Source: Vulcanimicrobiaceae bacterium
GTDB lineage: Bacteria > Vulcanimicrobiota > Vulcanimicrobiia > Vulcanimicrobiales > Vulcanimicrobiaceae
Assembly (NCBI GenBank): GCA_035279385.1
Contig: DATEHZ010000061.1
Span: 4,310-68,309 of the forward strand
Reading direction: 5' to 3'
DNA: 64,000 nucleotides
The notes under the pieces are model-generated. The model had not been told where the DNA came from, ran no database searches, and saw only the letters and a program-made list of their open reading frames with translations. A program made the position numbers and the translations under genes. Of this stretch, positions 39,684 through 56,399 are shown piece after piece. The first letter of the stretch is position 1, and each line of letters opens with the position of its first letter.

Positions 39684-39814
39684 GGTGCGGCCGTTATGCG
39701 GTTGGGTAAGCCGATTCCCGCCTCCATCGCGCGAAGCCGGATTCGGCGTAAGAATAGCGCTTTTCTAAACGCGATGCGGACTACGGCATAAGTATTAAGG
39801 TTTCGCGATTATCA

Positions 39815-40063: not shown

Positions 40064-40813
40064 ATGGGCAATTACCGTGAGGTCGAGGTCACCGAGACAC
40101 CAGCAGCGCGCGCCGCTCGCCTCTCGAAGACCGCTGAAAATGTTGCGCCCATCAATGAAGAGATCGGAGTTGATGCGCGCCTAATCCAAGAACGAGGCGG
40201 CGCCGACCCGGAGGAGCGTGCCGACGAATCCGCGACGCAAGCGATGCGCGGTCCGACGCGCGGTAAAGGGGGAAGATCTCGCACCGGTCGACATCCTAAG
40301 CAGAAAAGAGGAACATGGACCTGCCCGGCATGCCACGTTGAATACTGCACGCATCGTCCGGTTGATGCGGGCAGGCCCTCAATCTATGACGAGCCGATGG
40401 CTCCAAATCCGTTCAAACCACGCATATTTAAGACGGAGGCGGAGTACTTTCGCTCTTCGGTAGACGTGACACTACTGTTGCGCGACGTTGTCAACATCAT
40501 GCGCGCTTACTTCGAACGCAACGGGATCGATCCCATTAAAGAGTTGCGTGAACGCGCACTGGAGCATTACCGCGGCGGCGGTCCAGCAACGATTGACGTG
40601 GAAATGCGCGTGGAAATTGCCGAGCGATGGCCCAAAGCGCTGCTCGAATGGTGGCGCAGCACGCGCACCGCGATCGGCGTCAATGATGCTGTGTTGTGCC
40701 GGGAACTAGTCGCAGATTTTTCGTGGCTGGCGCTCACGGATCCCGCGGTTTCAGAGCGCGCGCTTCGCGCCCTGGAGGATGCGGCGGAGAAGTTGCGTCG
40801 GATTACTGCTTGA
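40064..40813 (+). CDS. Hypothetical protein with CxxC..C..H knuckle
   Basis: Internal ATG chosen (MGNYREVEV..). WTCPACHVEYCTH. No family recognised. Confidence 0.5.
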   Translation: MGNYREVEVTETPAARAARLSKTAENVAPINEEIGVDARLIQERGGADPEERADESATQAMRGPTRGKGGRSRTGRHPKQKRGTWTCPACHVEYCTHRPVDAGRPSIYDEPMAPNPFKPRIFKTEAEYFRSSVDVTLLLRDVVNIMRAYFERNGIDPIKELRERALEHYRGGGPATIDVEMRVEIAERWPKALLEWWRSTRTAIGVNDAVLCRELVADFSWLALTDPAVSERALRALEDAAEKLRRITA

Positions 40814-40847
40814 TTTTGCAATACCAATAATGCTATATTCGCAAGAC

Positions 40848-40877
40848 GACGCCGCTGACAAACGGCGTCTTATTTTT
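40848..40877 (+). terminator. Rho-independent terminator
   Basis: Stem GACGCCG/CGGCGTC followed by ttattttt. Confidence 0.6.
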
Positions 40878-40902
40878 GTTGCGCAGTTGGGGAAGTTAAA
40901 GG

Positions 40903-41097
40903 ATGACGGACAACAACCGAATTCGCGCGGTGCGCGAGCGCCGCGGCCTGACGCAAAGCCAACTCGGCGAACTTATTGGAAAGTCGCAGCCTGAGGTGTC
41001 AAGGCTCGAGATTCCGTCCGTCGCGCCGCGGCCAAAGACGCTCCGCAAAATTGCTGCAGCGCTGGACGTAAGCCCGCACGACCTACTCGTCGCCTAA
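40903..41097 (+). CDS. XRE/Cro-CI family HTH regulator
   Basis: IRAVRERRGLTQSQLGELIGKSQPEVSRLE, a canonical HTH_XRE. 64 aa. Confidence 0.8.
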   Translation: MTDNNRIRAVRERRGLTQSQLGELIGKSQPEVSRLEIPSVAPRPKTLRKIAAALDVSPHDLLVA

Positions 41098-41117
41098 CGC
41101 GTAGATAAAAAAAACGA

Positions 41118-41145
41118 GCGCCGGCGGCAACCGGCGCGATTTCTT
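41118..41145. terminator. Hairpin with flanking A and T tracts
   Basis: aaaaaaaa-cga-GCGCCGG-cggcaa-CCGGCGC-gatttctt. Confidence 0.5.
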
Positions 41146-41156
41146 GAGGCATTTCG

Positions 41157-41996
41157 ATGGTATCAGAAGACGACGCGTCACGCAACATCGCGGAGCGCGA
41201 CGAACGAAGGTGGTACGAAAAATCCCAAGCGGCGCTTCCCATTCTCGCCGGTTTACCAGCCTGCGCGTACGCTGTGTTTTATTGCATCCTCGGCCACGTT
41301 AAACCGGGCACCAACACGTGGTCAATGTCATACGCCGAGGTTGAGCGTGAGACGAAGATATCGCGAAGCAGCGTTGTTCGAGGCGTGCGTGAGCTCCGGC
41401 AGTCCATGCTTCTGCACACGGCTCAGCAGAAGCGTGAGCGCACCATTTTCACCTTGCATATTCCCGAACCGGTGTCAGGATTGACTGGTGTCGGGGTTGA
41501 GCATGATTACGGTGTCAGTGTTGAGCACGGTTCCGGTGTCAGGGTTGACGCATCACTGGTGTCAGCGCACGAAGAGCCTCCCAGCACACCCGATCCCAAT
41601 TCCCAACACGTCCCAGCAGCAGCCGCGCGCGTAAGTGAATCGGACCTAAAAGAAGCGTGGTCCAAGGAATCACCTTCGGCATATCCGGGCGTACGCACGT
41701 GGTCCGCATTCGTCGCGAAGAAAATTGAAAAAGGCGAAATGCCGGCGAAACGTTCAAATGACTCCCACGCAGTTTTATCGGGCACATGTGAGTGTTGCGG
41801 TAACCGAAAAACGGGGCGGCGCGTAGAGCCGTCGTTCGAGGATCTGATGCAGAGAGGCGACGTACTGCCCTGTGATCGGCCGTTCTTTTGCTTCGGCTGC
41901 TTAGAATTGTCGCAGCACGAACGGGACCGCCTGACACGCGAAAGGCGCGAGAAAGAGCAACAATGCGAATGGCAGACGGAGGACTATGCGGCATGA
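41157..41996 (+). CDS. Winged-helix DNA-binding, replication-initiator-like protein (uncertain)
   Basis: ISRSSVVRGVRELRQSMLL resembles the wHTH of phage/plasmid Rep/O-type proteins. Iteron-like repeats lie inside the gene. C-terminal Cys cluster. Confidence 0.45.
   Translation: MVSEDDASRNIAERDERRWYEKSQAALPILAGLPACAYAVFYCILGHVKPGTNTWSMSYAEVERETKISRSSVVRGVRELRQSMLLHTAQQKRERTIFTLHIPEPVSGLTGVGVEHDYGVSVEHGSGVRVDASLVSAHEEPPSTPDPNSQHVPAAAARVSESDLKEAWSKESPSAYPGVRTWSAFVAKKIEKGEMPAKRSNDSHAVLSGTCECCGNRKTGRRVEPSFEDLMQRGDVLPCDRPFFCFGCLELSQHERDRLTRERREKEQQCEWQTEDYAA
41471..41565 (+). repeat. Five iteron-like direct repeats GGTGTCRGKGTTGAS
   Basis: Copies start at 41471, 41487, 41511, 41535 and 41558 (the last is partial). 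Confidence 0.6.
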
Positions 41997-42181
41997 CAAT
42001 GGACGGACTGGCTGCAGCAGCACGTCGTCACGGCGCGGCGTTCAAATATCGCGAGGACGGCACTATCGTCACGATCGGGCTCGAGCGGCTCCCCGCCGAT
42101 TTGCGCCAGCAGGTCCTTCTTCGGATCGACGACGTGCGGCGCAGCGTCGCGCGGAGTCGAGAGGCACACGTAGCAAAATGA
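41993..42181 (+). CDS. Hypothetical small protein
   Basis: ATGA overlap with the upstream stop. 62 aa. Confidence 0.45.
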   Translation: MTMDGLAAAARRHGAAFKYREDGTIVTIGLERLPADLRQQVLLRIDDVRRSVARSREAHVAK

Positions 42182-42705
42182 GCACTCCAATAGCCCCAAA
42201 TGGCGGAAAAACGGCAGTTCGTTTTCGCGGCTCACGCGCAGAAAAGCCCGATGATACGGACGATCCCGAGGGTTCGTTTTTCCAAAACGACCGCGGGCAC
42301 CATAACGAGAAGTCCAGAACCCGTGCCGATGTGGCGCTCACGTCCGCTGAAGCGGTCTCAATGCTTGCGGGTGAAGTTGGCTTCGACGCGGAGATGGCCA
42401 AGCTGCAAGAGATGATGCGCCAGTCGACGCGCAAAATGCTCGATGAGGCGCGTTCAACGCGCGCGAAAACCGATGTGCTGACGTACTGTTTGGCGCTTCG
42501 TACCGCACTTGCGTTCGGCCAGGGCTTCTGTGCTCGCGAACTCGATGAGGACGAGACAGAGCGGATACATGAGCGATTAACGCTGAGGGCGGCGCGTGCC
42601 GTGCTGGCCAACGTCGAAAAGGCGGTTGAGCGCCAGATGTGGTTCACCGCGTACGATGCCTTGAACGCGTTTTTGATATCGGCGCTATCGTCTGGAGGGC
42701 GATGA
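42178..42705 (+). CDS. Hypothetical protein
   Basis: ATGA overlap with the upstream stop. 175 aa. Confidence 0.5.
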   Translation: MSTPIAPNGGKTAVRFRGSRAEKPDDTDDPEGSFFQNDRGHHNEKSRTRADVALTSAEAVSMLAGEVGFDAEMAKLQEMMRQSTRKMLDEARSTRAKTDVLTYCLALRTALAFGQGFCARELDEDETERIHERLTLRAARAVLANVEKAVERQMWFTAYDALNAFLISALSSGGR

Positions 42706-43607
42706 TGGGCGAGGTTATTGCGCTCGGCGAGCGCTGTCGAGGCGGACCGCGAACGGACGCTGGTAAGCGCCGATCCAGCCGCAACGCGATGAAGACCGGG
42801 GTGTTCGCTGAGGCCATCGTCATTCGTGGCGTCGAATCGCAAGACGCGTTTGATACCTTGGTCAAGTCCGTCGTCGGTTTTCATGACATCGAAGATCCCG
42901 TGACGCTGCTCGCTGCTGAAAGGTTTATTGCGATCGCATGGCGCCTGCGCCGCGTGCGTCGTATTGAAACTGAGAAACTGACGGAAAAGGGCCGGCAGTA
43001 CGTGGCCGCCTCTGAGGATTTGCAAGCACGACATCGATTTCTTGAAATACTCAATGGTTACCGGCGAGCCGTCTCGGACGTCTCATCGGTCGGTACACTG
43101 GAAATCGAAACGATCGACAATGCTGTCAACGGCGTGCAGTACGTCCTGCATTACGTTCTCGGGCTAATCGACTGGAAAGCGAACTGCGTTGAAGGACAAG
43201 TTTGCTTCGAGGCGCCCCGGCTAGAGCGTATCTTAGATCGCGGGAAGCGGGTCCGCGGGAAAACCGCCCGTGCGGCTTTTGACGATGCGCGCCTGCTCCT
43301 CCCCGACGTGTTCGACAAGCAGAAAAATGTCGAAGAATTCCTGTGGAGGATGTACCGCGCACTCGATGAGATAGTCGACGCGCAGCGCTCAGAAATAGAC
43401 GAACACGAACGCAAAGCTCTTCGCGCGTTCGTCGATGCGATGGAACTTGACTGGCAGGACGAGCGGTCGCTAAGCAACGCAGAGCGACGCCTGGACGCGC
43501 AATTCAGTCGCGCGCTGGCAGACTTTCACGCCGCCCGCCGAGCCGTCGCCGAAGACGCGGCTGATGTGCATGCGAAACGACGCGGCGCTCAGGTGGCGAA
43601 TCAGTAA
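42702..43607 (+). CDS. Hypothetical protein
   Basis: ATGA overlap with the upstream stop. 301 aa, helical. Confidence 0.5.
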   Translation: MMGEVIALGERCRGGPRTDAGKRRSSRNAMKTGVFAEAIVIRGVESQDAFDTLVKSVVGFHDIEDPVTLLAAERFIAIAWRLRRVRRIETEKLTEKGRQYVAASEDLQARHRFLEILNGYRRAVSDVSSVGTLEIETIDNAVNGVQYVLHYVLGLIDWKANCVEGQVCFEAPRLERILDRGKRVRGKTARAAFDDARLLLPDVFDKQKNVEEFLWRMYRALDEIVDAQRSEIDEHERKALRAFVDAMELDWQDERSLSNAERRLDAQFSRALADFHAARRAVAEDAADVHAKRRGAQVANQ

Positions 43608-43624
43608 GAACGGAGGTGTTTTCA

Positions 43625-43792
43625 GTGGGACAACTCGTCAAAGGGCTTCGTCCGGGAACCATGATTCACACGACCGCGGGAACCTTCCGCAACGGCAGCG
43701 AGCCGACGAAAGAGCAAGCCGACGCGCTGAAAAAGCAAGGTTACACGCTGGAGGAGAGCCCCGAAACGCTCGCTCCCGCTTGGGGTCGCTGA
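43625..43792 (+). CDS. Hypothetical small protein (below the ORF-track cutoff)
   Basis: GTG start 8 nt after GGAGGT. 55 aa, MGQLVKGLRPGTMIHTTAG... Confidence 0.4.
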   Translation: MGQLVKGLRPGTMIHTTAGTFRNGSEPTKEQADALKKQGYTLEESPETLAPAWGR

Positions 43793-43822
43793 CCCGGTTT
43801 TTACCTGAGCGAAGAACGATTC

Positions 43823-43856
43823 GCCGACGCATCTTGCGCCGGCAATTTTTATTTTA
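43823..43856 (+). terminator. Intra-operon terminator/attenuator
   Basis: Stem GCCGACGC/GCGCCGGC (one mismatch) followed by aatttttatttt. Confidence 0.5.
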
Positions 43857-43869
43857 CGAAAGAGGTGCC

Positions 43870-44061
43870 ATGTCAAACGAATTGAGCGATGCGCTCGACG
43901 ACATCACGCGTCGCCACTCCGCAGCCGAACACAGCGTTGTGCCCGCGGCCGCATATGGTGAGCGTCGCGATTCTGCCGTATCGCCGGACCATTACAAAAC
44001 CGGAGTCGAGACGGATGGGACATCCGAAGGTGCCGCAGCCCCGGAAGAAGGCGCCCAATGA
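43870..44061 (+). CDS. Hypothetical small protein
   Basis: SD AGAGG upstream. 63 aa. Its stop overlaps the next ATG. Confidence 0.4.
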   Translation: MSNELSDALDDITRRHSAAEHSVVPAAAYGERRDSAVSPDHYKTGVETDGTSEGAAAPEEGAQ

Positions 44062-44621
44062 AGAAAACCGCCGAAAGAGACCTGACAGCCGCGGATGTGC
44101 GCGCGCGTTTGGACGATGCCCGCGGCGAACTTGCCCAAGCGCGGGAGGATCTACCGAAGGCGCAGCGCGCAGCGGCGCGAGCGTATCTCATGCGCCAGCC
44201 GTACGATGATGCTGTGTCTGCGCGTTTCAACATCGCGCGCCTCGAAGACATAATTACCGGTTTGCAGTTGCTGCTACCGGTTGCGGAGCATCGCGATCGT
44301 TGCGTGGAGATCACCGAGTTGGAGCGTGAGAAATCGGCGTTGCAGCCGCGCATCGACACGCTCGACCGTCGTTATCGCGAGCTCATCGCCCAAACCCGCG
44401 ACCTGCCCGATCCAATGGCATCGTTTCTGGGTTCGCCGGCGCCGCACCCAAAGGTCGTGGAAAAAAATCGGGTCGGAGCGGAGCTGCGTTCACTCGAAAG
44501 CAGCCGCGATGGTATCGACTTCAGCATCGCGGCCGCAAAACAGCGCTGTGCGGATCTGGAGCGTGCCCATCCGGACGCGATCACGGAGGGCTGCGACGGC
44601 TCGAAGCGCGCAGCCGCCTAA
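44058..44621 (+). CDS. Coiled-coil hypothetical protein
   Basis: 187 aa with heptad-like charged helices. Confidence 0.5.
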   Translation: MKKTAERDLTAADVRARLDDARGELAQAREDLPKAQRAAARAYLMRQPYDDAVSARFNIARLEDIITGLQLLLPVAEHRDRCVEITELEREKSALQPRIDTLDRRYRELIAQTRDLPDPMASFLGSPAPHPKVVEKNRVGAELRSLESSRDGIDFSIAAAKQRCADLERAHPDAITEGCDGSKRAAA

Positions 44622-44766
44622 AACCTATCGCGGCAGCACTCCGCCGCGTGCGTGGTCACGTCTGCTACGGCGGGCGGACCACGAATCGTGGCCGGCGGGC
44701 TTGAATCACCCGCTGGTCCGTCCGGCCGTCGCTTTGGGGTCCATGCGGCGGCCGGGCACTTCATTA

Positions 44767-44787
44767 CCGGTAACTCTCGATTATCGA
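44767..44787. promoter_or_regulatory. Operator-like palindrome CCGGTAA-N7-TTATCGA
   Basis: Matches the 48070 and 51402 sites. Lies 28 nt upstream of the J-domain gene start. Confidence 0.4.
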
Positions 44788-44814
44788 CAATGCTCCGTTA
44801 GTGGAGGTGACACC

Positions 44815-45465
44815 TTGAGTGCTGCGCCGCAAGCATTTCCGCTTCAGTGGCCTGCCGGCAAACCGCGAACGCCGGCGCAGAAGCGCGAGCGCGCAAAATT
44901 CGGCAAGAAGGGCCGCGGCTGGACATCGGATCCCATCACCGGCGGCAATCGGTACGAGGGCGCAAAGTCACTGACGGTCGCCGATGCGGTCGCGCGCGTG
45001 CAGGGAGAACTCAGGCGCTTAGGCGCAACGCACCCCGTCATTTCGACGAACATCGAACTGCGGCGTGATGGTCTGCCGTACTCGAAGCAGCCGCGACTCG
45101 ACGACGATCCTGGCGCCGCGGTGTACTTTCAGCTCAAGGGCAAGCCGATCGTGCTCGCCTGCGACCACTACGACCGCGTCGCGGACAACGCCGCTGCGAT
45201 CGCTGCGCACGTCGACGCGATGCGTGCGATTGAACGGCACGGCGTCGGCTCGCTTGAGCAAATGTTCGCCGGGTTCGCTGCGCTACCGCCGATATCGCCA
45301 GATGATTGGCGCGAGCCGCTCGGGCATCCGTCCACGCTGGACGAGGCAGAGCGTAATTATCGAGAGCGCATGAAGTACGCGCATCCAGACGTGGGCGGTA
45401 ACGAAGCCGTCGCCGCGAGACTTAACGCAGCAATCGCGAAAGCGCGCGAAGAGCTCGCTGCATAA
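44815..45465 (+). CDS. J-domain (DnaJ-like) phage-type protein
   Basis: TTG start 6 nt after GGAGGTG. C-terminal J domain ..YRERMKYAHPDVGG.. (HPD motif). Confidence 0.7.
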   Translation: MSAAPQAFPLQWPAGKPRTPAQKRERAKFGKKGRGWTSDPITGGNRYEGAKSLTVADAVARVQGELRRLGATHPVISTNIELRRDGLPYSKQPRLDDDPGAAVYFQLKGKPIVLACDHYDRVADNAAAIAAHVDAMRAIERHGVGSLEQMFAGFAALPPISPDDWREPLGHPSTLDEAERNYRERMKYAHPDVGGNEAVAARLNAAIAKAREELAA

Positions 45466-45510
45466 TCATGCTACCGACTCAAAGTATGGTGCTACGGAGA
45501 TTGATAAGTA

Positions 45511-45750
45511 TTACAGCGATGCGTGGTGCTTTGGTACTGCAGAGAGACGCCAGATGATAGGCTTAGCGGTGCTATGCGTGTGGTGGTCTTGTGGTGGCAG
45601 TGAACGGTCCTTTTCGCACGCCGCTTCCCACCCACAGTTGATGCACCGGTAGATCCCGGGCTCCGGCGGTTTTTTACCAGGTGTATACGTCTTGTCGAAC
45701 GCCGCATGGGTCTTCTGCGTGAATTCGGCCTGTCGCTGATAGTACGGCAT
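45511..45750 (-). CDS. Small zinc-ribbon protein
   Basis: 79 aa, GIYRCINCGWEAAC. Confidence 0.5.
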   Translation of the reverse strand: MPYYQRQAEFTQKTHAAFDKTYTPGKKPPEPGIYRCINCGWEAACEKDRSLPPQDHHTHSTAKPIIWRLSAVPKHHASL

Positions 45751-45903
45751 ATTACGCCCCCGGCTGCGTTAAGAAAAAAAGGGATCTTCCACATTCAAAT
45801 CCGCTTCTTACAGCTCCCGCGTTGCCCGATGGTTCTTTAGTTTTATTTGATGCGTTGACACCAGAGCACCTTATACGACGTGCTTTTGTTTTTGGAAGGA
45901 AAA

Positions 45904-46122
45904 ATGATAAAAATCGTTTTTGCGGCAGCCTCCCTGCTTTCTGTCCTTATCACCGGGGCCGACCGCTGCGCGCCGGGCTCTTCCGCTAAGCCAGGCATAG
46001 TTTGCGTGGTCGGCGCTCTAAAAAAAGGCGGCGATATTCGAAATGTGTACGCTTCCGATGGTGCGCAACTGATCGTAGAGCAAACTGATGCTGCGTGCAT
46101 TCGGGATACGCACGCCAAATGA
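45904..46122 (+). CDS. Small secreted protein
   Basis: Internal ATG after GAAGGA. Signal-like MIKIVFAAASLLSVLITGA. Confidence 0.45.
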   Translation: MIKIVFAAASLLSVLITGADRCAPGSSAKPGIVCVVGALKKGGDIRNVYASDGAQLIVEQTDAACIRDTHAK

Positions 46123-46955
46123 GAAATGCAATTTTACGCGTCGCACTGGCAATTGCTGCTTTCGCGCTGCTTGGTGCATTCGCGAGCAATCAGCTGATGT
46201 CTAGAAACGACGTTTATGCTCAGATCGGCACCGCGTTCTCGTGGGCCGGCACGGCGCAAGCGTCATGGAACGGCGATCACACCATGGTGAACTGCTCCGA
46301 CTTCTTCACGTACATTAAGTCGGACGGTTCCAGTTGCACGACGTTGTACGGAACGAACGGCGCTCATCAGATCATGAATTGGTCGCAGATGCAGCAGCAC
46401 GCGGTCAACTCTACACCGGTTTCGCATACCCCGATCTTGTCGAACAATACCTTTGCCGGGGCCGTCTTCAGCCCGTGGACCGCCGACGGGTCGGCAACCT
46501 GTTCCGCGAACTTCGCCGCCTCGACGACCGATCAGGAAGGCACCGACGGCGGCAGTGCGACGGGCAATTCAAGCAACGGAACGTGCACCATTGGGATGAG
46601 CCAGACGTTCAACGTTACCGCTGCTCCGACGAGCCAATCGCTTTCGTTTTACTATGAGACTCCCAATGTATCCGCCGGCGACGGAATCAACTGCACGGCG
46701 GGAACGGGATCGGCAACAATCACGATCAAGCTCAACGGTACGACGATCTCTACCATTACCAACCCCACCTACGATTCGTCCTGGCACCCGGTGAGCACGC
46801 CCATCAGCGCCATGGTATCTGGAAGCAACACGCTGGATATTACGGTATCGCTCACGGCCGCTTCCGGAACGACCGGAAGCCCAGCGTGCACTACACATCA
46901 ATACGCCCAACAACACGTGTACATCGACAACGTTCAATTAACCGCGACGTACTAG
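46119..46955 (+). CDS. Secreted Ser/Thr/Asn-rich protein
   Basis: ATGA overlap. Signal peptide MRNAILRVALAIAAFALLGAFA. About 11 N-x-S/T sequons. Confidence 0.55.
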   Translation: MRNAILRVALAIAAFALLGAFASNQLMSRNDVYAQIGTAFSWAGTAQASWNGDHTMVNCSDFFTYIKSDGSSCTTLYGTNGAHQIMNWSQMQQHAVNSTPVSHTPILSNNTFAGAVFSPWTADGSATCSANFAASTTDQEGTDGGSATGNSSNGTCTIGMSQTFNVTAAPTSQSLSFYYETPNVSAGDGINCTAGTGSATITIKLNGTTISTITNPTYDSSWHPVSTPISAMVSGSNTLDITVSLTAASGTTGSPACTTHQYAQQHVYIDNVQLTATY

Positions 46956-47046
46956 CCTCGTGCGGCGCAATTTATACCTTTCGAATTTGCGAAAAATGGA
47001 AAAGGGACCGACTGCATCGATCCCCTTCGTCAGGTCACGGACGTGG

Positions 47047-47973
47047 CTAGTATGTAAATGCGCCGGCGGACGCGAGCATGTAACCGGCAAAGATGTCCTG
47101 GTTCGGATCGCTTGCCCCGAAGATCGCCCACTTGCCGATACGTCCATCATGCGTTTTGAAGCAGTACGTGTTCGGGCTCGATCCGTTGAACGTCGAGATA
47201 CTCACGCTGGTCGCAGCGCTGGGAATGGCTCCGCAGGCGCTCGTGGTCGTGACATTCATCAGCGCGTTGTAGCCGGCCGCGACCGCGCCATACGGAAAGA
47301 CGACTTGCGAAGGGCTGGTTGACGCATCGAGATAGACATCGGTATCCGCCTGCGTGTCGGCCTGCTCGCTCACGCCGTTCGCGTCGAACATCGCGCCCGT
47401 CAGGAAGTGGAACAAGTCCGTCGTGTCGAGCGACGATCGCAGCCCCATCCCGCGGTAGGTCAGTAGCGAGAGTTTTTGGGTGGTACCCAGTGACGTCATC
47501 GTGATCGTCGTTTGACCCGAGGTCGTCGGCAAGCCGACGACCTCGGCATTGAATACCTGCTGACAACTGCAGTTATTCAGCGGCCACGTCGGATACGTGG
47601 TCGGAATCGGCGCGGGGTTGCCGGTTTGACTCCATGTGACCGAGGGCAACGGGCTCGGGATCGCCGATCCGTCCGTCGTGTCGAGCACTGCCTGAGCCTC
47701 AACGCCGATCGTGTTCGGCGCGCCGCTGATATATGCGTCCGGAACGGCAAGTTGCTGTGTCGGGATGATTTGCCCGACGACGGTCGCCATCGGCGACGTC
47801 ATTACAGAGCGAAACAGGCTTTGCGGCGTTGAGCCGGAGGATCCGAACGTCGCGAGCACCTTGGCGGCTTTCGGTTGCATTGTCGGCAGTACGCTGGGCG
47901 AACCGCTGCCTCCGCCGCATCCGGCAAGCGCACAGGCGGAAACGGCGACGACGATGAGCGTGAAACGAATCAT
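47047..47973 (-). CDS. Lipoprotein, hypothetical
   Basis: Lipobox ALAGC followed by a Gly/Ser linker. 308 aa, Ser/Thr rich. Confidence 0.6.
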   Translation of the reverse strand: MIRFTLIVVAVSACALAGCGGGSGSPSVLPTMQPKAAKVLATFGSSGSTPQSLFRSVMTSPMATVVGQIIPTQQLAVPDAYISGAPNTIGVEAQAVLDTTDGSAIPSPLPSVTWSQTGNPAPIPTTYPTWPLNNCSCQQVFNAEVVGLPTTSGQTTITMTSLGTTQKLSLLTYRGMGLRSSLDTTDLFHFLTGAMFDANGVSEQADTQADTDVYLDASTSPSQVVFPYGAVAAGYNALMNVTTTSACGAIPSAATSVSISTFNGSSPNTYCFKTHDGRIGKWAIFGASDPNQDIFAGYMLASAGAFTY

Positions 47974-48069
47974 GTTGTGATTTATACCTCCGCGCCAATC
48001 TTACCAAAGGCGCTCGGCGGCCGCGTTGCCGATAACAATTCCACGCACAAAATTGCGCCGCACGCGCTA

Positions 48070-48090
48070 CCGATAATCAAACCTTATCGG
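48070..48090. promoter_or_regulatory. Perfect palindrome CCGATAA-N7-TTATCGG (operator-like)
   Basis: Intergenic, 44 nt upstream of ORF 48134. An extra half-site CCGATAA lies at 48029. Confidence 0.5.
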
Positions 48091-48133
48091 AACCAGCGAT
48101 GCGCAAAGTCAAGATAGCCGGGGGTTACGGAAG

Positions 48134-48550
48134 ATGACTGCTCACGTCGCGCGAGACAGCGCGCTGGTGGATGAGTCGATGCAAATGCAGACCGCCAGCA
48201 TTCATGCGGCAGAGCTGGCGAAATCGGCCTTTGAGGCCGCCAAGTATAGGGCGCTTGCGTTGACGTGGGCGCACACTATAGACCTGCTGGACACGTATCT
48301 TGCACCAGCGAACAGTCTTGAAGAGCTCCGCCGCGACATGCCGCTCCTCATCTGGGCGATACACACGTTGTGTAGCGCGATGCTGGACCAGACGCCCTCG
48401 CCTGAGCCGGTTGGAACGCATCCCGCGTTTGCCCGCATATCGAGGCGTGACGCGACGCGGATCCTGCGCGAGATGCGCGACGGCATCGTCGATGAGCGCT
48501 ATGAAAAACTGCGGCGCCGCTGCGCCAATCTACTTCCGGAGGTCGCGTAA
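48134..48550 (+). CDS. Hypothetical protein abutting the tape-measure-like gene
   Basis: 138 aa. Its TAA is immediately followed by the ATG of the next gene. Confidence 0.5.
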   Translation: MTAHVARDSALVDESMQMQTASIHAAELAKSAFEAAKYRALALTWAHTIDLLDTYLAPANSLEELRRDMPLLIWAIHTLCSAMLDQTPSPEPVGTHPAFARISRRDATRILREMRDGIVDERYEKLRRRCANLLPEVA

Positions 48551-50935
48551 ATGGCTGGTACCGATCCATATAGACTCTGGGTTGAATTTCGGGTCAAGGA
48601 TTACACGTCCGAGAACCTGGCCAACATCAGCAAATCCGTCCGCGCGACGAAAGAGCAAACCGCGGCCCTCAAAAAAGAGCTCGCCGGTATCCGCGCGCAG
48701 TCAATGATCCCGACGTCGGCTCTTCAAGCACGGCAGCAGATGCTGCGGATTGCTCGAGAGGAAGCCGTCGTCGGCGAGCGGCTCGCAACGACCTCCACCC
48801 GTAAGGAGCGGCAAGCGCTCTCGACGCGTCTGCAAGCTCTGCGGATCGCGCAGCGAGACATGTCGGTCACGCGTCAGACGCTGGCGTTCAAGGAACAGCA
48901 AGGGGCGGCGGAAGAGAAAGTCGCTGCCGCGAACGCGCAAGTCCTCGCCGTGGCGAGGGACCTCTCCGAAATCCGCGCGCGCGGACTCGGTCAGGCGACG
49001 GATCTCACCGAACTGCGCCGCGAGCAGCTGGAACTCGCCCGAGAAGAAGCGGCGATCCGCGAGCAACTCGCGACGACGGTCGATCTCGCCGAACGCGCAG
49101 CGCTGCAAAGCCGATTGGAAGCCGTGGGTCTGGCGGAGCGGGAGCTGCAGATCCGCCGGCAGACGCTGGGCGTCGACAAGGCCGATCGCAAAGCCCGTCT
49201 TGAAGCCTTAGCGCAGGTCGGTCACGGCGTGAATCACGTCGGCACCAATCTGATGTTCACCGGCGGCGGTATCTTCGCAGGTCTGGCCTATGCCACGCAA
49301 AAGGCGATGGTGTTCGACCAAACGGCGCTGGAAACGGACATGGCGCTCGGCGGGTACACCCGTTCCGCGGCGCAGCGGCAGTCCGACATTCGCGCGCTTC
49401 AAAAAGCGGCGATGATCGGCTCCGAGGCGACGGGATTCTTCAGCGCCCAGGACATTCTCGAAGGCTTGAAGATGGCCGCGAGCTCCGGTTCGCGTCCGCT
49501 CGTCGAGAAGATGGGCATGGGGGTCTTCACGCAGATCGCTCCCTCGCTCAGCCAGTTCATGGACGTGCTCGGCCGGCTCAAGGGCGAGTCCGCCGGGCAA
49601 GCCGCGAAGGAAGCGATTCAGACCGCGCACATGTTCGGCGCCTACAAGCCGGCCGATATCGCGCGCGTGCTGAACGCGCAGGCCGCGCTCACGCTGTTGA
49701 TGCCGGACAAAATGTCCACCGCGGTCAATACGCTTGCGTACGCCGCTCCGGCGGGCGTGCAGCTCGCTGGGATCCCGCAAGAAGCCATCCTCGCGCTCTT
49801 GGCGACGGCAGACCAATCCGGTCTGGGTCACGGCCGCGCCGGCGCGCGCCTGAAAAACTACATCGAAGCGGTCGCTCTGCACCAATCAGCGCCACGGGAG
49901 CGCGCGAAGGCCGCGCTGGGTATCCACAACGCCGTCAATCCGGACGGCAGCGTCGACCTGATGCGTTCGTTCGAGATCCTCATGGCGGATCGCAAACGCA
50001 TGGGTGCACAGGCATTCCGCGATGCGGCCACTACTGCATTTGGTCAGCAAGGCGTCATCGTCGCCGCGATGTTCGGCGACGAGAGCAAGCAGAGCATGTT
50101 CAACGCCAATCGCGCGGTTATCGAACAGGCGATCCAGCACGGCGATCTGAGCACGATCCAAAACCTGATGAAGGGCACGGCGCTTGGAAAAGAAGCGCAG
50201 GCCATGGCTCGTCTGAACAACGACCTCATCGAATTCGGCCGCTCTGGGATTCCGATCGCGACGAAGTTCTTCGACACGATCAACCCGAAGCTCAAACAGT
50301 TCGGTGACTGGATGCAAGCGCATCCGAAAGCCACGGATCGCCTCTTCAACGACCTGGTTGACGTTGGTGGCGGAATGCTTGCGTTCGGAGCGGCCTTCAA
50401 GGTATTCGGAACCGCACTGGCCGTACCGCTGGGCATCTTCAAGACGCTGCAGGCGCTGAAGATGGCGAAGGATCTGGGCACGATCGCGAAGGCGGTAAAG
50501 ACGCTGGGGCTCGTGGAATCCGCAGCGGCGCCCGAGGCGGAAGCCCTGGCCGGCATCGGCACCATCAGCGCGGGAACGGTCGCGGCGGTGACCGGTGCTG
50601 TCGCTGCCGTCGCCGGTCTGCTCTACGGCGTCGTCTACGATGAGAAGCACCCGACGCCATCATTCACGGGTCTTGGCCCCGCTGCGGACGCGACGGCGGC
50701 AAACTACGGTTTGCTCGGAACGCAAACGGCATACACTCCTCTCGGTCCCGGCAAGACGACAGCCGATCTTTCCGCGCTCAAAGCGAAAGTCGAATTCGAA
50801 CTGCCAAAAAATATGCCGCGCGGCACGCGCGTGACGGTTCACGCGCACCTGCAAAGCATCATGGGCACGAATCCGCGGTCAGTCGCGCTACCGAAGCCGG
50901 TGACGGTCGGCGGGATGTCCTTCGGGACGCCTTAA
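48551..50935 (+). CDS. Phage tail tape-measure-like protein (TP901-type core)
   Basis: N-terminal repeated coiled coil. Core ..AAMIGSEATGFFSAQDILEGLKMAASSG.. and ..GLGHGRAGARLKNY... Gly/Ala-rich hydrophobic C-terminal part. 794 aa. Confidence 0.7.
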   Translation: MAGTDPYRLWVEFRVKDYTSENLANISKSVRATKEQTAALKKELAGIRAQSMIPTSALQARQQMLRIAREEAVVGERLATTSTRKERQALSTRLQALRIAQRDMSVTRQTLAFKEQQGAAEEKVAAANAQVLAVARDLSEIRARGLGQATDLTELRREQLELAREEAAIREQLATTVDLAERAALQSRLEAVGLAERELQIRRQTLGVDKADRKARLEALAQVGHGVNHVGTNLMFTGGGIFAGLAYATQKAMVFDQTALETDMALGGYTRSAAQRQSDIRALQKAAMIGSEATGFFSAQDILEGLKMAASSGSRPLVEKMGMGVFTQIAPSLSQFMDVLGRLKGESAGQAAKEAIQTAHMFGAYKPADIARVLNAQAALTLLMPDKMSTAVNTLAYAAPAGVQLAGIPQEAILALLATADQSGLGHGRAGARLKNYIEAVALHQSAPRERAKAALGIHNAVNPDGSVDLMRSFEILMADRKRMGAQAFRDAATTAFGQQGVIVAAMFGDESKQSMFNANRAVIEQAIQHGDLSTIQNLMKGTALGKEAQAMARLNNDLIEFGRSGIPIATKFFDTINPKLKQFGDWMQAHPKATDRLFNDLVDVGGGMLAFGAAFKVFGTALAVPLGIFKTLQALKMAKDLGTIAKAVKTLGLVESAAAPEAEALAGIGTISAGTVAAVTGAVAAVAGLLYGVVYDEKHPTPSFTGLGPAADATAANYGLLGTQTAYTPLGPGKTTADLSALKAKVEFELPKNMPRGTRVTVHAHLQSIMGTNPRSVALPKPVTVGGMSFGTP

Positions 50936-51375
50936 TGCTGCCACGGCAACGCGCCGCACTTCGAAAGAAGAACCAGCACAATAACTAGCAGCGCAATCCA
51001 CAATAGCGCATAGATGACCTGCAAGGCGGCCTGCACGATGAGTGCGAGGTCGAGCAGCAATCCGCCGAGGCCGGCGAACAGCATGCGCCACGCTTGTCGC
51101 TTAGATAGTCTCGCCTGAGGCGGCGTCGTAATCACAGGCGCCCTGCGCGGTTCGAAAGCTGTGGGTTCCGGGTCGTGGATGCGAGCGCAAAACGGCGCGC
51201 TTTCATCCTCGGCTGCGCGGTTGGAGCGTGCGGCAAATTCGGACTCGATGTCCCAGGTATTGGGATCGGTATCACGGTCGGTTTCGGCTTGGTCCGCATC
51301 CTCGTCGTCTTCGTTATCGACGAACGGGGCGGCCCAGCCGCTGACCCCGCGCTTGCGGTTCATAGCTGAAAGCAT
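50932..51375 (-). CDS. Acidic protein with a C-terminal TM anchor, hypothetical
   Basis: 147 aa. D/E-rich N-terminus and a hydrophobic C-terminus. Confidence 0.4.
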   Translation of the reverse strand: MLSAMNRKRGVSGWAAPFVDNEDDEDADQAETDRDTDPNTWDIESEFAARSNRAAEDESAPFCARIHDPEPTAFEPRRAPVITTPPQARLSKRQAWRMLFAGLGGLLLDLALIVQAALQVIYALLWIALLVIVLVLLSKCGALPWQH

Positions 51376-51401
51376 AGTTCAGCCGAGTAGATGCCACACT
51401 G

Positions 51402-51422
51402 CCGATAACCGCAAATTATCGA
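51402..51422. promoter_or_regulatory. Palindrome CCGATAA-N7-TTATCGA (operator-like)
   Basis: Lies in the divergent intergenic region between 51375 (-) and 51627 (+). Confidence 0.45.
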
Positions 51423-51626
51423 GCGCCTCAATTCGCGGGTGCGGCAAAGGTTAATATTCTGTGATTTTCACCACGACCGACGGCGACGCAGTCATCAGCG
51501 GAGGAGGACGTACGGCTTTGGGGCGGAAGCGCGCTTCATGTCCGCTGCGCATAGAGGTGGGGCGCTTCCCCTTTTTTCCGAAACCCGGGCTTCGTCGTGC
51601 TCGTTATCGGGTAAGGAGATAGCAGA

Positions 51627-51887
51627 GTGACCATTATGTACGCACCGAGCCGGCGGGCCTTCAACCGTGACCGTCGTCCGGACAGCCCGCAGAAGATCGT
51701 CAACGATGCGGTGCGCAGCCTCCACGTGCGCTGCCTTGGCGTTGATGGAACACTTCTCATTTTTCAGCGCACAAACCGAGCTTCGCACGATCTCAACGCT
51801 CTAACGCAACAGATCGCCCAGCGGCTTCTTCAGAACGAAGATCTGCGTGAAGCGCTGAGCGGGATTACCGGCATAAGATTGCTGTAG
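51627..51887 (+). CDS. Hypothetical protein
   Basis: GTG start 9 nt after AAGGAG. 86 aa. Confidence 0.45.
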   Translation: MTIMYAPSRRAFNRDRRPDSPQKIVNDAVRSLHVRCLGVDGTLLIFQRTNRASHDLNALTQQIAQRLLQNEDLREALSGITGIRLL

Positions 51888-51912
51888 GCCGGCGCTGCGC
51901 GCCGTCGGGTGG

Positions 51913-52695
51913 GTGTGGTTCCTCGCGCTGGGGATTCCGGCCGTCGCTATCGGATTTGTGTCATGGCTATATGTCCACCAATGGTTGGCGCTTGCACATG
52001 GCTCAAGCGTAATACAGTGCGCGTTCGGCAATCCAGTTTGTAGCGTTGCGGTAGCGACATGGGCCTTGGTGCTGTTCACGATTTTTGCGTTTGCCGCTGC
52101 GGCGTCTGCGGCGATTTTCGCGAAGTGGGCGTTCAATAACGAGATCGAGCCGAGGCTAGGCGAGGATGCCTGCACGAATCGCCGTTGCACGCGACGCGAT
52201 CGCGTCTGGTACCTTTCTTCGGACATCGAATTTCTGCCTAAACGTCCGCTGGGCAGCACAGAGAAGCAGTATCGAAAAGTGCATCACGCTTTTACGAACC
52301 TAGGGCGCAACGCCCTGGGGAACGTCGTGGTCAAGGTCTGTTTTCTGGATAAGGACGGCTTTCCGTCCCCCGAATTTGACATGCCACTTGGAAACCTCGG
52401 TGTAGCGGACCTGCACCGCGAACGGCACGTCGAAATTCGTATCCACGAGGATCTTTACGACGATGGCGACGTCTTCATTCGATTTAATTCGGCGTCAGCC
52501 GACGGCAAAAAGATCAAGGCGTTCTTGAAGGTCGATCCCGAAGTGCCAACGGCGCAGAATCTGTTCATCCTGCCAAACTCCCAGCTATCCATGGGAGAGC
52601 TAATGCGCGAAGTGCGCCGAACCGAATTGAAACCTGGTCGTTCGAATCGCCGACGCGAAGCCGAGGCCGGACACGTGCAGGAAGACGACGAGTGA
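51913..52695 (+). CDS. Membrane protein with a cytoplasmic C-terminal domain, hypothetical
   Basis: 2-3 N-terminal TMs followed by a soluble domain of about 170 aa. Confidence 0.5.
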   Translation: MWFLALGIPAVAIGFVSWLYVHQWLALAHGSSVIQCAFGNPVCSVAVATWALVLFTIFAFAAAASAAIFAKWAFNNEIEPRLGEDACTNRRCTRRDRVWYLSSDIEFLPKRPLGSTEKQYRKVHHAFTNLGRNALGNVVVKVCFLDKDGFPSPEFDMPLGNLGVADLHRERHVEIRIHEDLYDDGDVFIRFNSASADGKKIKAFLKVDPEVPTAQNLFILPNSQLSMGELMREVRRTELKPGRSNRRREAEAGHVQEDDE

Positions 52696-52718
52696 TGCTC
52701 TTCCGCGATTAGCTGGCG

Positions 52719-52932
52719 CTATCGCGTCTCAAGTCGTCCGGTCACTCTGACTTTATCCCAGCGAAACGTCAAACACTGGACTTCACCGGGCGGGAACGCA
52801 CCGTCTCGGATCGTTACGGTGCCCGCTGCCATTGCCGACGAATCGCGCCGTCGCCGCCGCGTGGTGGATCTAACGCACTGTAGTCAATACTTGCGCCACG
52901 CGGCGAGATCCGCCGATCGCAAAGGCGGTCAT
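52719..52932 (-). pseudogene. Frameshifted paralog of the 68-aa gene at 54353..54559
   Basis: MTAFAIGGSRRV.. stops after 20 codons. Another frame continues ..GTVTIRDGAFPPGEVQCLTFRWDKVRV, matching ..TVTIETVCFPPGEFQRLTFRCDDVTL. Confidence 0.45.
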
Positions 52933-52948
52933 GCTCCTAGAAATTCCA

Positions 52949-53368
52949 TCATTCGCCGGACGGTTGAACATCTGGATCGAGGCGCAGCCAATCACCCTGT
53001 AATAAAATTGCTGCCGGACCGTGGTTTTCGTTCAACGATCCAAGCATGGCCGCCACATGCATATCGTGTATGTCGCGCAGCTGTGGCGCGTACTTCTTCG
53101 GACCACTAAATGACATTTCGAACACGGCCCATTCGTCAGTGCCGGGAAGGGGCCACACCGCGGTTCGTTCATGGAACTTGCGCAAATGCGCCAGTGGAAC
53201 GCTTTCGGTGTCGAGATAAACTTGTTTGTCCCTGCTCCGCCGCAATCGCTGCGCGAGATCGGCCGATTCCGGGTGAAGGCGGAAGCGAATTGCAGACCGG
53301 TACGTGATGCGGTCGTTTGCAAGCGTGATTTGCGGGTCAAGACTTGGTTTACTGTTCATCTCATTCAC
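52949..53368 (-). CDS. Hypothetical protein
   Basis: 139-aa ORF. No family recognised. Confidence 0.45.
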   Translation of the reverse strand: MNEMNSKPSLDPQITLANDRITYRSAIRFRLHPESADLAQRLRRSRDKQVYLDTESVPLAHLRKFHERTAVWPLPGTDEWAVFEMSFSGPKKYAPQLRDIHDMHVAAMLGSLNENHGPAAILLQGDWLRLDPDVQPSGE

Positions 53369-53405
53369 CGCGCCTTTGCCGTGCGCGCCATGCGTCGGCG
53401 CGTCA

Positions 53406-53780
53406 TTAGACGTCCGGCTTTTCTACGAATAGGTGACCGTTCGCGTCCACGTTGATCCGCGCGTAAACACGCTTTGATGCTGCCGCGATAACCTGGGGAA
53501 GACCGCGGTGCGCGTCCAGGCGCTGTAGCTCAAAGTCGCCATCGTCCGCACCAAGGCGGTGGATGGCCAGATCGCTCGCGAAAACCTGCACCGCCTCTGT
53601 CCCGAATCCCTCATCTGCGCGCGTGTTTAATCCCCGAACGGGCTCAACGTCAAATTTCGTTCCGCGGACGCTCCGCTCGACGTACGCCTTAAACCGTTGC
53701 TCACCGCGCTCCATTTGCGGGCCGCCCGACGTGCTTCCCATAGTGAGGCGTACGGCGCCACAGCCTTCAACGTCCTGCAA
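53406..53780 (-). CDS. Hypothetical protein (start uncertain)
   Basis: 124-aa ORF. No family recognised. Confidence 0.4.
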   Translation of the reverse strand: MQDVEGCGAVRLTMGSTSGGPQMERGEQRFKAYVERSVRGTKFDVEPVRGLNTRADEGFGTEAVQVFASDLAIHRLGADDGDFELQRLDAHRGLPQVIAAASKRVYARINVDANGHLFVEKPDV

Positions 53781-53802
53781 AGCTGGCGATAAGCGGCTGT
53801 TA

Positions 53803-54219
53803 TCAGTAGGTAACGTACGCGTCCCCCGGCGGTAAATCGAGGCAGTCTAGTAGAAGGCTCGCGAGCGTTTCGAGCGCTGCTCGAAGATCCTTTGCGTTGT
53901 TCTGGAGCCAACACCATTTTTGGTTTTTCGTCGCGCGTTCTATCTGGGTCGCGTATCGCATGATTTGTGTCGCCCCGACGCAGCGGGCACCCTCGCGAAG
54001 CTTATCGCACAGATAGAGCACCGAGGTCCAATCGCGATCCGCGATCGCGCCCGCTATGCGCGCCGAGGTTTGCGTTGCATCGGGCAACCAGATTTTGCGA
54101 ACGAATTCGAACGCTGCGTCGACATCGCAATCGAAGAATTCGGCGACTCGTGCCAGGTCATCGGGATTGAGGCACATCGCCTCCAAATCCGCATCGCGCA
54201 TCACGTCCACCCTTTCCAT
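53803..54219 (-). CDS. Four-helix, HPt-like protein lacking the phospho-accepting His (speculative)
   Basis: WTSVLYLCDKLREGARCVGATQIMRYATQIE resembles the HPt pattern ..H.LKGSA..LGA..L...LE with His replaced. Confidence 0.35.
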   Translation of the reverse strand: MERVDVMRDADLEAMCLNPDDLARVAEFFDCDVDAAFEFVRKIWLPDATQTSARIAGAIADRDWTSVLYLCDKLREGARCVGATQIMRYATQIERATKNQKWCWLQNNAKDLRAALETLASLLLDCLDLPPGDAYVTY

Positions 54220-54352
54220 GACGACGCGCCGCTGGCTAAAGGCCGACGCCGCGCATATCGGTGTGCCCCCTTGCTTTATAGGACTATCGGCCCATAGTTG
54301 GGGACGAGAAACGTCGCAGTTCTTTGTAAAGAGCGCGCAAAGCGAATGCGGG

Positions 54353-54559
54353 TTACGCCCGGGATTTAGTGAGCGTTACATCGTCGCACCGGAACGTCAG
54401 ACGCTGAAATTCGCCCGGCGGGAAGCACACCGTCTCTATGGTCACGGTATTGCGTGTCATCGCTACAACGGTGCCGTCACCGCCGCGTTGCGGGTCCATC
54501 TGGCTATACTCGCGCTTGCGCCACGAGACACGATCGCCAATTTTAAATTCGGTCATCAT
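54353..54559 (-). CDS. Small (68 aa) hypothetical protein, intact copy of the duplicated gene
   Basis: MMTEFKIGDRVSWRK...; paralogous remnant at 52719..52932. Confidence 0.5.
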   Translation of the reverse strand: MMTEFKIGDRVSWRKREYSQMDPQRGGDGTVVAMTRNTVTIETVCFPPGEFQRLTFRCDDVTLTKSRA

Positions 54560-54797
54560 GTTGCGCCTATAACACGGCGGCCCGCGTGCGGTCAAACGCC
54601 GGCGGGCTAATCGCATAAAAAACAGGAAGGCCCGCTGAAAGCGAGCCTCTCTGTCGTCGCGTACGCGGTTCCCCGCGTACCGGGTGTGGGCGACGATTGA
54701 GCGCGATTCGGCCAACATCAAGATTGACCTTCGCTAGTCCCGAAGGTGCGCTACATGTGAATCTCTTCGGTTGTGTTCCGCGCCGAATTGCTCGCCA

Positions 54798-55142
54798 TTA
54801 CTTTCCCTCCGCATTGCCGCGGCGCCGCTCACTATTTTGCTGTGCCTGGTCAAGCGCGTGCAGCACGGCCATTGCGTCGTCGCTGTCGTTAAGCCAGATC
54901 GTTTCAGTGGGGCCACCGAAGGGCGGTTTGCACGATGGCGCCGACTGAACCGTGATGCCTAAGCGTCGGCACCGACGTTCTTTCGCCGCAGTAACGCACT
55001 TATCGCACGTCGCGCGGTCAGATTCCGTTTCCGAAGTACCGCACATGATGCAAAGGCCGGCTGCGCGCAGGCGCTGTAGGCGCCGGCGCCGAGTGGCGCG
55101 AGCCCTGGCCTTTGCGTCGCTGTGTATTTTACGTCGCGGCAT
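54798..55142 (-). CDS. Basic zinc-ribbon protein, hypothetical
   Basis: Arg-rich N-terminus and GLCIMCG...CDKC. Confidence 0.5.
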   Translation of the reverse strand: MPRRKIHSDAKARARATRRRRLQRLRAAGLCIMCGTSETESDRATCDKCVTAAKERRCRRLGITVQSAPSCKPPFGGPTETIWLNDSDDAMAVLHALDQAQQNSERRRGNAEGK

Positions 55143-55155
55143 ATGACTGAAGCGG

Positions 55156-55320
55156 CTATTCCATCAAGGGTTTGCGTAATTCCGCCGCGATCGCCGAGAT
55201 TCTTGTGTCTAGTACATCAGCCATGCGTGGTGCAACGCGTGCGACCACCTCGGCGAGGGTGCCGACGAAGCCTCCTACAGCCATTTCGAGCGTCGGATAT
55301 GTTACAGTGATTTCTGCCAT
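55156..55320 (-). CDS. Possible 54-aa ORF downstream of the tyrosine recombinase
   Basis: MAEITVTYPTLEMAVGGFVGTLAEVV...; weak SD. Below the ORF-track cutoff. Confidence 0.3.
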   Translation of the reverse strand: MAEITVTYPTLEMAVGGFVGTLAEVVARVAPRMADVLDTRISAIAAELRKPLME

Positions 55321-55418
55321 GATGAAGACCCTTTCGTTATGGCGCGGTCGGGCGGTCGTGGCTGCGATCGCTCGACCTTCAGTGATGTTCGGGTTCTCTG
55401 TTACGCTGGTGAAGTCGC

Positions 55419-56399
55419 TTACCGGACGATGCTGGCGAGCGCGGGATCTTTGAACAGATCGGCCCTTCTGATATAGCCGCTCAGAACCGCCATACTCTTG
55501 TGCCGCGTCGTTCTGCTGATATTATCGAGCGTCGCGCCGGCCTCCGCGGCGCTCGTCACGAATCCGGCGCGCAGGGAATGCCCGCTGAAGTCGCCCTCGA
55601 GCCGCGCGCGGTCCGCAACCGTCTTCACGAGGTTCGCGACGTCGCGCCCGTCGATGCGCCGCTCCGTGAGCTGGCCGCGCAGCGTGAACGAGCGGAATGC
55701 CGGACCCGCAGTGAGGGCGGCAGCCTCCAGCCACGCCCGCACGGCCGTCGCCGCGCACAGTGCACGGTTCGCGACGTATGGCACGGCAATCTCGCACCCT
55801 TCGCCGATCTGGTCGGTTTTTGAACGACGAATCGTGACGAGAAGTCCCTGCTTTGCGAAGTGCAGATCCACAACGTCCAGCGCGGCTATCTCACTGCGGC
55901 GCAGCGCGGCTGCAAAGCCAAGCAGCAGAATCGCGCGATCGCGCAGCGCCTTCACACCGTCGCCGTTCACCGCGAGCAAAGCCTGCCGCAGAACATCGAG
56001 CGTAATGGCGGTTTTCTTCGCCTGCGATGCTCCCAGCGTGCGCGCGATGCCTTGGAGTATCCGGCGCACCATATCGTGCCTTGTCGGCGATTCCAGGCCG
56101 CGCTCGCGGTGCGCCTGCGAAATCGCGACCATGCGCCGGCGGATCGTCGCAAGCTTTACGCGCTGCGCGAGATCTGAGGCGTACAGCGCGACGGTCTGCG
56201 GATCGGCGGGAAGCGCCGGCGCTCCGTGGCGGCGGCAGAACGCTTCGAAGTCGCGCAGGTCGCTGCCGTACGCGCGGCGCGTCGACGACGACTTCGCGGC
56301 TTCAGCGAACGCACGTGCACGGTTGACGGCGGCCGGCTCGATGTGCGCCCGATAAGTCTTGCTTACCGGTAACGTGGGAGTGTCTTGCAGCGCGAGCAT
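55419..56399 (-). CDS. Tyrosine recombinase/integrase
   Basis: SAM-like N-domain (RRAYGSDLRDFEAFC). Catalytic region ALRRSE..., HSLRAGF, RHKS...YIR. Start set to the ATG 1 nt after the upstream stop. Confidence 0.85.
   Translation of the reverse strand: MLALQDTPTLPVSKTYRAHIEPAAVNRARAFAEAAKSSSTRRAYGSDLRDFEAFCRRHGAPALPADPQTVALYASDLAQRVKLATIRRRMVAISQAHRERGLESPTRHDMVRRILQGIARTLGASQAKKTAITLDVLRQALLAVNGDGVKALRDRAILLLGFAAALRRSEIAALDVVDLHFAKQGLLVTIRRSKTDQIGEGCEIAVPYVANRALCAATAVRAWLEAAALTAGPAFRSFTLRGQLTERRIDGRDVANLVKTVADRARLEGDFSGHSLRAGFVTSAAEAGATLDNISRTTRHKSMAVLSGYIRRADLFKDPALASIVR

Follow-up and report, generated by a model that had tools for sequence, protein, structure and literature searches.

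The 64,000-nucleotide stretch analysed here (the window; positions 4,310 to 68,309 of contig DATEHZ010000061.1, from a Vulcanimicrobiaceae bacterium) contains a 19.4-kb integrated mobile element in which a palindrome, CCGATAA-N7-TTATCGG, is found five times. The element also encodes a tyrosine recombinase related to Cre and to IntA of Rhizobium etli, and the five palindromes are very likely attachment (att) sites of this enzyme. The features on which the argument turns are listed below, and each palindrome is referred to by its first coordinate.

37799-57221: integrated mobile element of 19.4 kb that holds all five sites, delimited by the empty site in two same-genus genomes

44767-44787: att-like site 1, CCGGTAA-CTCTCGA-TTATCGA, two mismatches

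48029-48035: lone half-site CCGATAA, 34 nt left of site 48070

48070-48090: att-like site 2, (TA)CCGATAA-TCAAACC-TTATCGG(AA), no mismatches, the best fit to the family consensus

51402-51422: att-like site 3, CCGATAA-CCGCAAA-TTATCGA, one mismatch

53786-53806: att-like site 4, GCGATAA-GCGGCTG-TTATCAG, two mismatches

56349-56369: att-like site 5, CCGATAA-GTCTTGC-TTACCGG, one mismatch

55419-56399, minus strand: IntA/Cre-like tyrosine recombinase of 326 residues (Pfam Phage_integrase and a SAM-like N domain), the proposed binder of the sites

A search of the window for the palindrome with up to two mismatches returned these five matches, against a mean of 0.14 expected from dinucleotide shuffles, none of 100 of which gave five, in line with the view taken in a preliminary description of the same DNA that recurrence by chance is unlikely. 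That description had correctly located three copies (48070-48090, 51402-51422 and 44767-44787, with 0, 1 and 2 mismatches, respectively) together with the half-site CCGATAA at 48029, and had missed the two further ones at 53786 and 56349. Restriction of the motif to the element was likewise confirmed genome-wide. The host assembly (3.06 Mb, 168 contigs, 63% GC) holds seven matches at up to two mismatches, five of them within a single 11.6-kb stretch, and a weight matrix built from the five sites, whose own scores are 26-31 bits, found its runner-up genome position at 14.7 bits (the scan, though circular as a test, shows that the genome holds no comparable sixth site). The pattern CCGRTAA-N7-TTAYCGR occurs a single time across 40 related genomes taken together, from the same genus, family, order and class, and half-sites are about six-fold enriched within the element. 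The arms extend outward, with a T at position -2 in eight of the ten, which yields a 25-bp palindrome around a 7-bp centre.

Site 44767 lies 145 nt past gene 44058-44621 and 27 nt ahead of the start of a J-like gene at 44815. Two sites occupy divergent gaps: 48070 stands between a lipoprotein gene (47047-47973, minus strand) and ORF138 (starting at 48134, plus strand), and 51402 is 26 nt from the start of gene 50932-51375 (minus strand) and 204 nt from a start at 51627 (plus strand). Site 53786 is located between two minus-strand genes, where it overlaps the stop codon of 53803-54219 and precedes the ATG at 53741 by 44 nt. Site 56349, finally, sits at the 5’ end of the tyrosine recombinase open reading frame, which reads through it: the palindrome starts 30 nt past the ATG and makes up codons 11–17 (PVSKTYR). 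The intergenic location originally assigned to the motif therefore fails for 56349, and that of 53786 is qualified by its overlap with the upstream gene. The distances between successive sites, which partition the right half of the element, give blocks of 3.3, 3.3, 2.4 and 2.5 kb. Extra half-sites like the one at 48029 also accompany the full site in two related loci (L082 and L104). In the same gap, the right copy of a perfect 15-bp inverted repeat (CGTGCGGCGCAATTT / AAATTGCGCCGCACG, at 46959-46973 and 48050-48064), which flanks the lipoprotein gene, falls between the half-site and site 48070.

The tyrosine recombinase gene is the sole one of its kind in the assembly (tblastn, E≤1e-3). The best solved relative of its product is Cre (E 1e-12, full-length alignment), and the catalytic set is complete, with R167, K194, H274, R277, H300 and Y309 aligning with Cre R173, K201, H289, R292, W315 and Y324. 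Homologues are common on plasmids (3307 records). R. etli IntA, reportedly first described by Hernandez-Tamayo et al. in 2013, aligns by BLASTP over residues 85-313 with 33% identity (E 3e-27). IntA recombines 23-bp sites, of which attA (TCCGATAAGCATTACTTATCGGA) consists of two palindrome arms and a divergent central region, and its att site has been defined experimentally as TCCGATAA-N7-TTATCGGA (PMC4928290). Site 48070 reads ACCGATAA-N7-TTATCGGA, identical to R. etli attA at 15 of 16 arm bases, while the other four sites match TCCGATAA-type att arms at 12-13 of 14 core bases around a divergent 7-bp centre. On plasmid p42a, the only such site is found 109 nt upstream of the integrase gene taken as intA. 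A literature search with the raw motif sequence returned unrelated primers only.

Palindrome and recombinase are found side by side in other loci as well. Scanning viral contigs for the exact pattern gave 117 loci, mostly single chance matches; a homologue of the recombinase (33-46% identity) adjoins the site in 11 of them, and no other protein of the element recurs. The palindrome lies about 90-330 nt ahead of the aligned residue 36-67 in 10 of these 11 loci, and 4-75 nt upstream of the start codon where one could be placed. We also gathered relatives with no criterion other than protein similarity (79 viral loci and 80 from metagenomes, 159 in all, 147 of them with upstream sequence) and found CGATAA-N6-8-TTATCG, with at most one mismatch in its 12 positions and between -450 and +120 nt of the projected start, in 78 of the 147, at a median of -60 nt. 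The host-genome background of about 5 one-mismatch matches per Mb and no exact ones corresponds to about 0.4 expected in the sequence examined. In some relatives the two arms co-vary (GGGATAA..TTATCCC, CCGAGAA..TTCTCGG), as would follow if two copies of one protein read the site. Site 56349 sits at the canonical place of the family, the 5’ end of the recombinase gene. DNA homology of the int module between relatives starts at the site, or within about 8 nt upstream of it, in six of eight comparisons, an observation that is suggestive only.

The sites are thus confined to the element, linked to a recombinase family and identical to a tested att site. These findings support the idea that the five palindromes are IntA-type att sites (lox/dif-like cores) of the element’s own tyrosine recombinase, an assignment in which we have considerable confidence and under which the enzyme would bind all five.

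The preliminary description had instead viewed the palindromes as the operator set of an element-encoded dimeric regulator, with a small XRE protein as the obvious candidate:

40903-41097, plus strand: XRE protein of 64 residues, not linked to the motif

This protein is the only recognisable helix-turn-helix regulator in the element, and XRE-family dimers can bind similarly spaced palindromes (HipB, for example, recognizes TATCC-N8-GGATA). However, the nearest full site is 3.6 kb from its gene, and among 5.8 billion proteins it has no homologue besides identical copies, all of them in assemblies 99.98-100% identical to the window. The motif, in turn, is found with the recombinase in more than 80 loci, whereas XRE-like genes occur near the motif or recombinase in only 3 of the 159 related loci, and it equals a proven att site. 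That the XRE protein, or another small regulator of the element, uses the palindromes as operators is accordingly very improbable. What survives of the earlier proposal is a set of element-confined sites for an element-encoded binder of two-fold symmetric DNA; operator function does not follow from it, and a regulon linking otherwise unrelated modules is not supported, because the motif travels with recombinase homologues and equals the IntA att site. A regulatory side-effect of recombinase binding is possible.

Although the arms keep 12-14 of 14 core bases across the five sites, the centres (CTCTCGA, TCAAACC, CCGCAAA, GCGGCTG and GTCTTGC) have at most four of seven bases in common in either orientation. 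If the sites work as those of IntA and Cre do, one recombinase monomer would bind each inverted arm (T-n-CCGATAA) and strand exchange would take place within the 7-bp central region. Cre needs matching centres, and sites with differing centres do not cross-react, a property exploited in heterospecific sites and cassette exchange (PMC10250229); IntA tolerates one mismatch (PMC4928290). We considered recombination among the five sites of the element and rejected it: since all centres differ and such tyrosine recombinases need matching ones, the sites should be inert toward one another and the element should stay intact. Each would recombine only with a partner of the same centre. This partner might be the same site on a sister copy, in which case multimers would be resolved, or it might lie on another replicon, in which case a cointegrate would form; two such matching sites would allow exchange of the block between them.

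The family usually carries one site per replicon, and the five sites within 11.6 kb of the window element, the most seen, are unusual. Whole viral records of relatives (n=24, up to 120 kb) have 0 or 1 site each, and complete plasmids (n=11) have 0, 1 or 2. Among the 80 metagenome contigs, one (L294) has three exact sites with 6-bp centres that differ from each other, two (L251 and L296) have one site on each side of the recombinase gene, and three more (L268, L301 and L275) have two sites. The extra sites in L294, L251 and L268 mark block boundaries, such as the gap where two genes converge or the position directly past a stop codon, while one extra site in L301 is within a long open reading frame. 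Within a subgroup with 6-bp centres (L251, L296, L236, L238 and L241), the site upstream of the recombinase keeps the centre CTCCCC, and two contigs of this subgroup also have a common downstream-site centre, CCCATC.

As to the four extra sites, we tentatively favour the view that they act as recombination ports, to which we give somewhat less than an even chance, because the extra sites of relatives are not at promoters, because arm conservation far exceeds what scars would retain, and because an R. etli att site placed between promoter and gfp left expression undisturbed. A more specific version, namely that the sites form an incompatible set through which an IntA-like recombinase swaps 2-3-kb blocks between related replicons via matching centres, much as in cassette exchange, is doubtful; if true, it would constitute a self-encoded counterpart of the pdif modules of Acinetobacter and would explain the mosaic right half of the element.

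The recombinase could instead bind the extra sites solely as a regulator (a repressor or roadblock), making them a regulon rather than ports. This is the principal competing reading, though one that we regard as rather unlikely. Some recombinases do repress their own promoters through their sites, as in the case of TnpI of Tn5401 and the Tn3 resolvase. Conserved arms with centres free to vary are what selection on binding only would be expected to leave, and each of sites 1-4 is followed by a start codon at 26-44 nt, two of these sites being in divergent promoter gaps. The short gaps of a compact element, however, put any tolerated site near a start, and the extra sites of multi-site relatives are found at convergent gene ends or past stops rather than at promoters. 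No sigma-70-like promoter was found at any of the five sites. Moreover, in an IntA-expressing strain, transcription from the lac promoter into gfp was unaffected by an IntA att site inserted between the two (PMC4928290).

The extra sites might also be inert scars of past att insertions, accreted and without present function. The element does look mosaic, and repeated insertion at IntA-type att sites duplicates them and builds arrays. Products of such insertions have one common centre, whereas here all five differ, and decay should hit the arms as fast as the centres, which is not the pattern of conservation described above; we therefore find this explanation improbable. Even less credible, in our judgement, is a role at the RNA level, in which the palindromes would form 7-bp hairpins within 5’ leaders and serve in processing or translational control, or else a role as sigma-28-type -10 boxes (GCCGATAA). 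Three internal mismatches do become G-U pairs on the sense strand, but hairpin stability is low and varies from site to site (-2.1 to -11.6 kcal/mol), two of the hairpins being no better than shuffles, and it is the arm sequence itself that is conserved, beyond pairing, around unrelated loops. As for sigma-28, the 30 nt preceding each of the ten arms contain no TAAA -35 box, and the genome has 0 matches to TAAA-N14-16-GCCGATAA.

Several observations weigh against the assignment of the palindromes to the recombinase or against their use as ports. The identity to IntA is just 33% and covers the catalytic domain only, the N-terminal part being unaligned, so that the window enzyme is a distant member of the family. 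About half of the homologous recombinase loci have no recognisable upstream site, and the closest relative of the recombinase (L223, 65% identity) has neither the palindrome at the homologous position nor an array in its 4.9 kb. The distance of four of the five sites to a start codon, 26-44 nt, would fit an operator role too. No partner site was found elsewhere in the host assembly (which is 93% complete, so a partner could be missed), no rearrangement at the sites is seen in eight public assemblies whose copies of the element are 99.98-100% identical, and no block of the element was found elsewhere flanked by such sites. The genes of the blocks are either orphans or present elsewhere without sites: none of 400 genomes from the phylum encodes a real homologue of ORF138, the J-like protein (phrog_9210) has one distant match, without a site, and the tape-measure-like protein matched one ordinary phage, which lacks sites.

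The arrangement can be compared with several known systems. IntA/att of R. etli CFN42 (p42a and pSym) is the closest: the site sequence is the same, the tyrosine recombinases are homologous, and a simple two-arm site with a variable centre, supporting a bidirectional reaction, lies just upstream of the gene. IntA fuses two replicons, p42a and pSym, via their att sites (PMC4928290). In R. etli, however, each of two partner replicons has a single site, the centres of the two being almost the same, in contrast to the five unrelated centres found here in one 19.4-kb element that is itself probably integrated by a serine recombinase. Cre-type systems (Cre/loxP, Dre/rox and Vika/vox), whose sites usually adjoin the recombinase gene and have a common G-A-T-A motif beside the spacer (PMC10250229), show the same catalytic residues, a palindromic site near the gene and partner specificity set by the centre. 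They differ in that lox has 13-bp arms and an 8-bp spacer (34 bp), compared with arms of 8-9 bp and a centre of 7 bp here (6 in the sister group), and in that phage P1 has a single loxP.

Acinetobacter Rep_3 plasmids offer a different parallel in their pdif modules, where Xer sites delimit each block and recombine only with sites that have the same spacer (PMC13141974, PMC6449649). In both cases a single replicon carries several sites whose arms are conserved, ending in ATAA / TTAT, and whose spacers differ, with gene blocks of a few kb between them; in the pdif table, the inner ATAA...TTAT is the hallmark of Xer dif sites. The pdif sites, by contrast, are acted on by host XerC and XerD, alternate in orientation and combine two unlike arms with a 6-bp spacer, whereas in the window sites both arms are CCGATAA-type and flank a 7-bp centre, and the element supplies its own recombinase. 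Movement of blocks is a documented property of pdif modules and a hypothetical one of the window element. Phages, too, can disperse repressor sites, as with the C1 operators of P1 and the stoperators of mycobacteriophage L5, which resemble the present set in that a short site recurs many times across a mobile element and often occupies small gaps between genes; a dedicated repressor binds those sites, and the site described here belongs to a recombinase family.

These comparisons replace a speculative regulon with a concrete recombinase/att assignment that includes an experimentally proven att sequence. The IntA-like family is widespread on plasmids, phage-like contigs and metagenome contigs of several phyla, and its site is strikingly conserved. 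The family of recombinases and att sites was already known; what is new is that a single small element holds five sites whose centres are unrelated. Were the extra sites active, they would represent a second, independent case after pdif of block shuffling by site-specific recombination, with the enzyme on board, as well as a ready set of orthogonal sites for one recombinase. Were they only bound, the element would provide a rare example of a tyrosine recombinase acting as a global regulator of the element that encodes it.

The boundaries of the element follow from the empty site in the two same-genus genomes, in which window position 37798 is joined directly to 57222, with GCTGC as the common core; the element thus comprises 37799-57221. 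The interrupted host gene (57211-57531, minus strand) encodes a small Gly-rich, Gln/Glu-rich protein, and its 3’ part lies left of 37798. In the reconstructed attP, an 11-bp inverted repeat (CTTGCTTTGTG / CACAAAGCAAG) surrounds the GCTGC core, as expected for a large serine recombinase, and such a gene is located directly inside the left junction:

37848-39266, plus strand: large serine recombinase with Resolvase and Recombinase domains

37812-37833: degenerate, off-spacing copy of the palindrome, AGGATAA-N8-TTATCGG, 14 nt ahead of the serine recombinase ATG, of uncertain status

This inverted repeat and the location of the gene indicate that the serine enzyme is the likely integrase of the element. 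For off-spacing copies such as that at 37812, about 0.1 are expected by chance in 19 kb. The 11-mer TTAYCGGTAAC occurs three times in the element (37822-37837, 44759-44774 and 56358-56373); two of the three copies form an arm variant (TTACCGGTAA, itself a 10-bp palindrome), and the third is 11 nt ahead of the serine recombinase ATG.

The same target gene is met again in L223 (metagenome contig Ga0070731_10018343, 1-1400), where the recombinase stands beside a truncated homologue of the interrupted host gene and the neighbouring cargo is entirely different from that of the window element; L223 probably carries a related element that occupies this same gene. Another contig, L027 (IMG/VR contig 3300023179_000105, 66 kb), has three sites with a common ACATTATCGG within 700 bp (1235-1927) and no recombinase homologue in the stretch examined, and probably represents a different repeat system.

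Besides the genes already mentioned, the element carries a tape-measure-like gene and many orphan genes. Composition was not informative for comparing its blocks, as GC content (58-63%) and tetranucleotide profiles are alike. A sequence of about 85 nt ending in a hairpin and a T-run is present in two genome copies, at 54560-54665 (minus strand) and at C131:22520-22620, and shows a compensatory change in one internal stem (GTACGCGG..CCGCGTAC vs GTATGCGG..CCGCATAC); Rfam has no match for this candidate small RNA. A contig break common to four samples at 54619-54646 was considered as a structural variant and rejected, since it is due to the repeat with the C131 copy. Outside the element, the SLT transglycosylase gene 57813-58451 belongs to the host. 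It is followed by a gene for a 446-residue protein (58452-59854, weak GHL15 match), located between the SLT and YceD/L32 genes and without a counterpart in the two same-genus genomes; this region is a second, small insertion or deletion.

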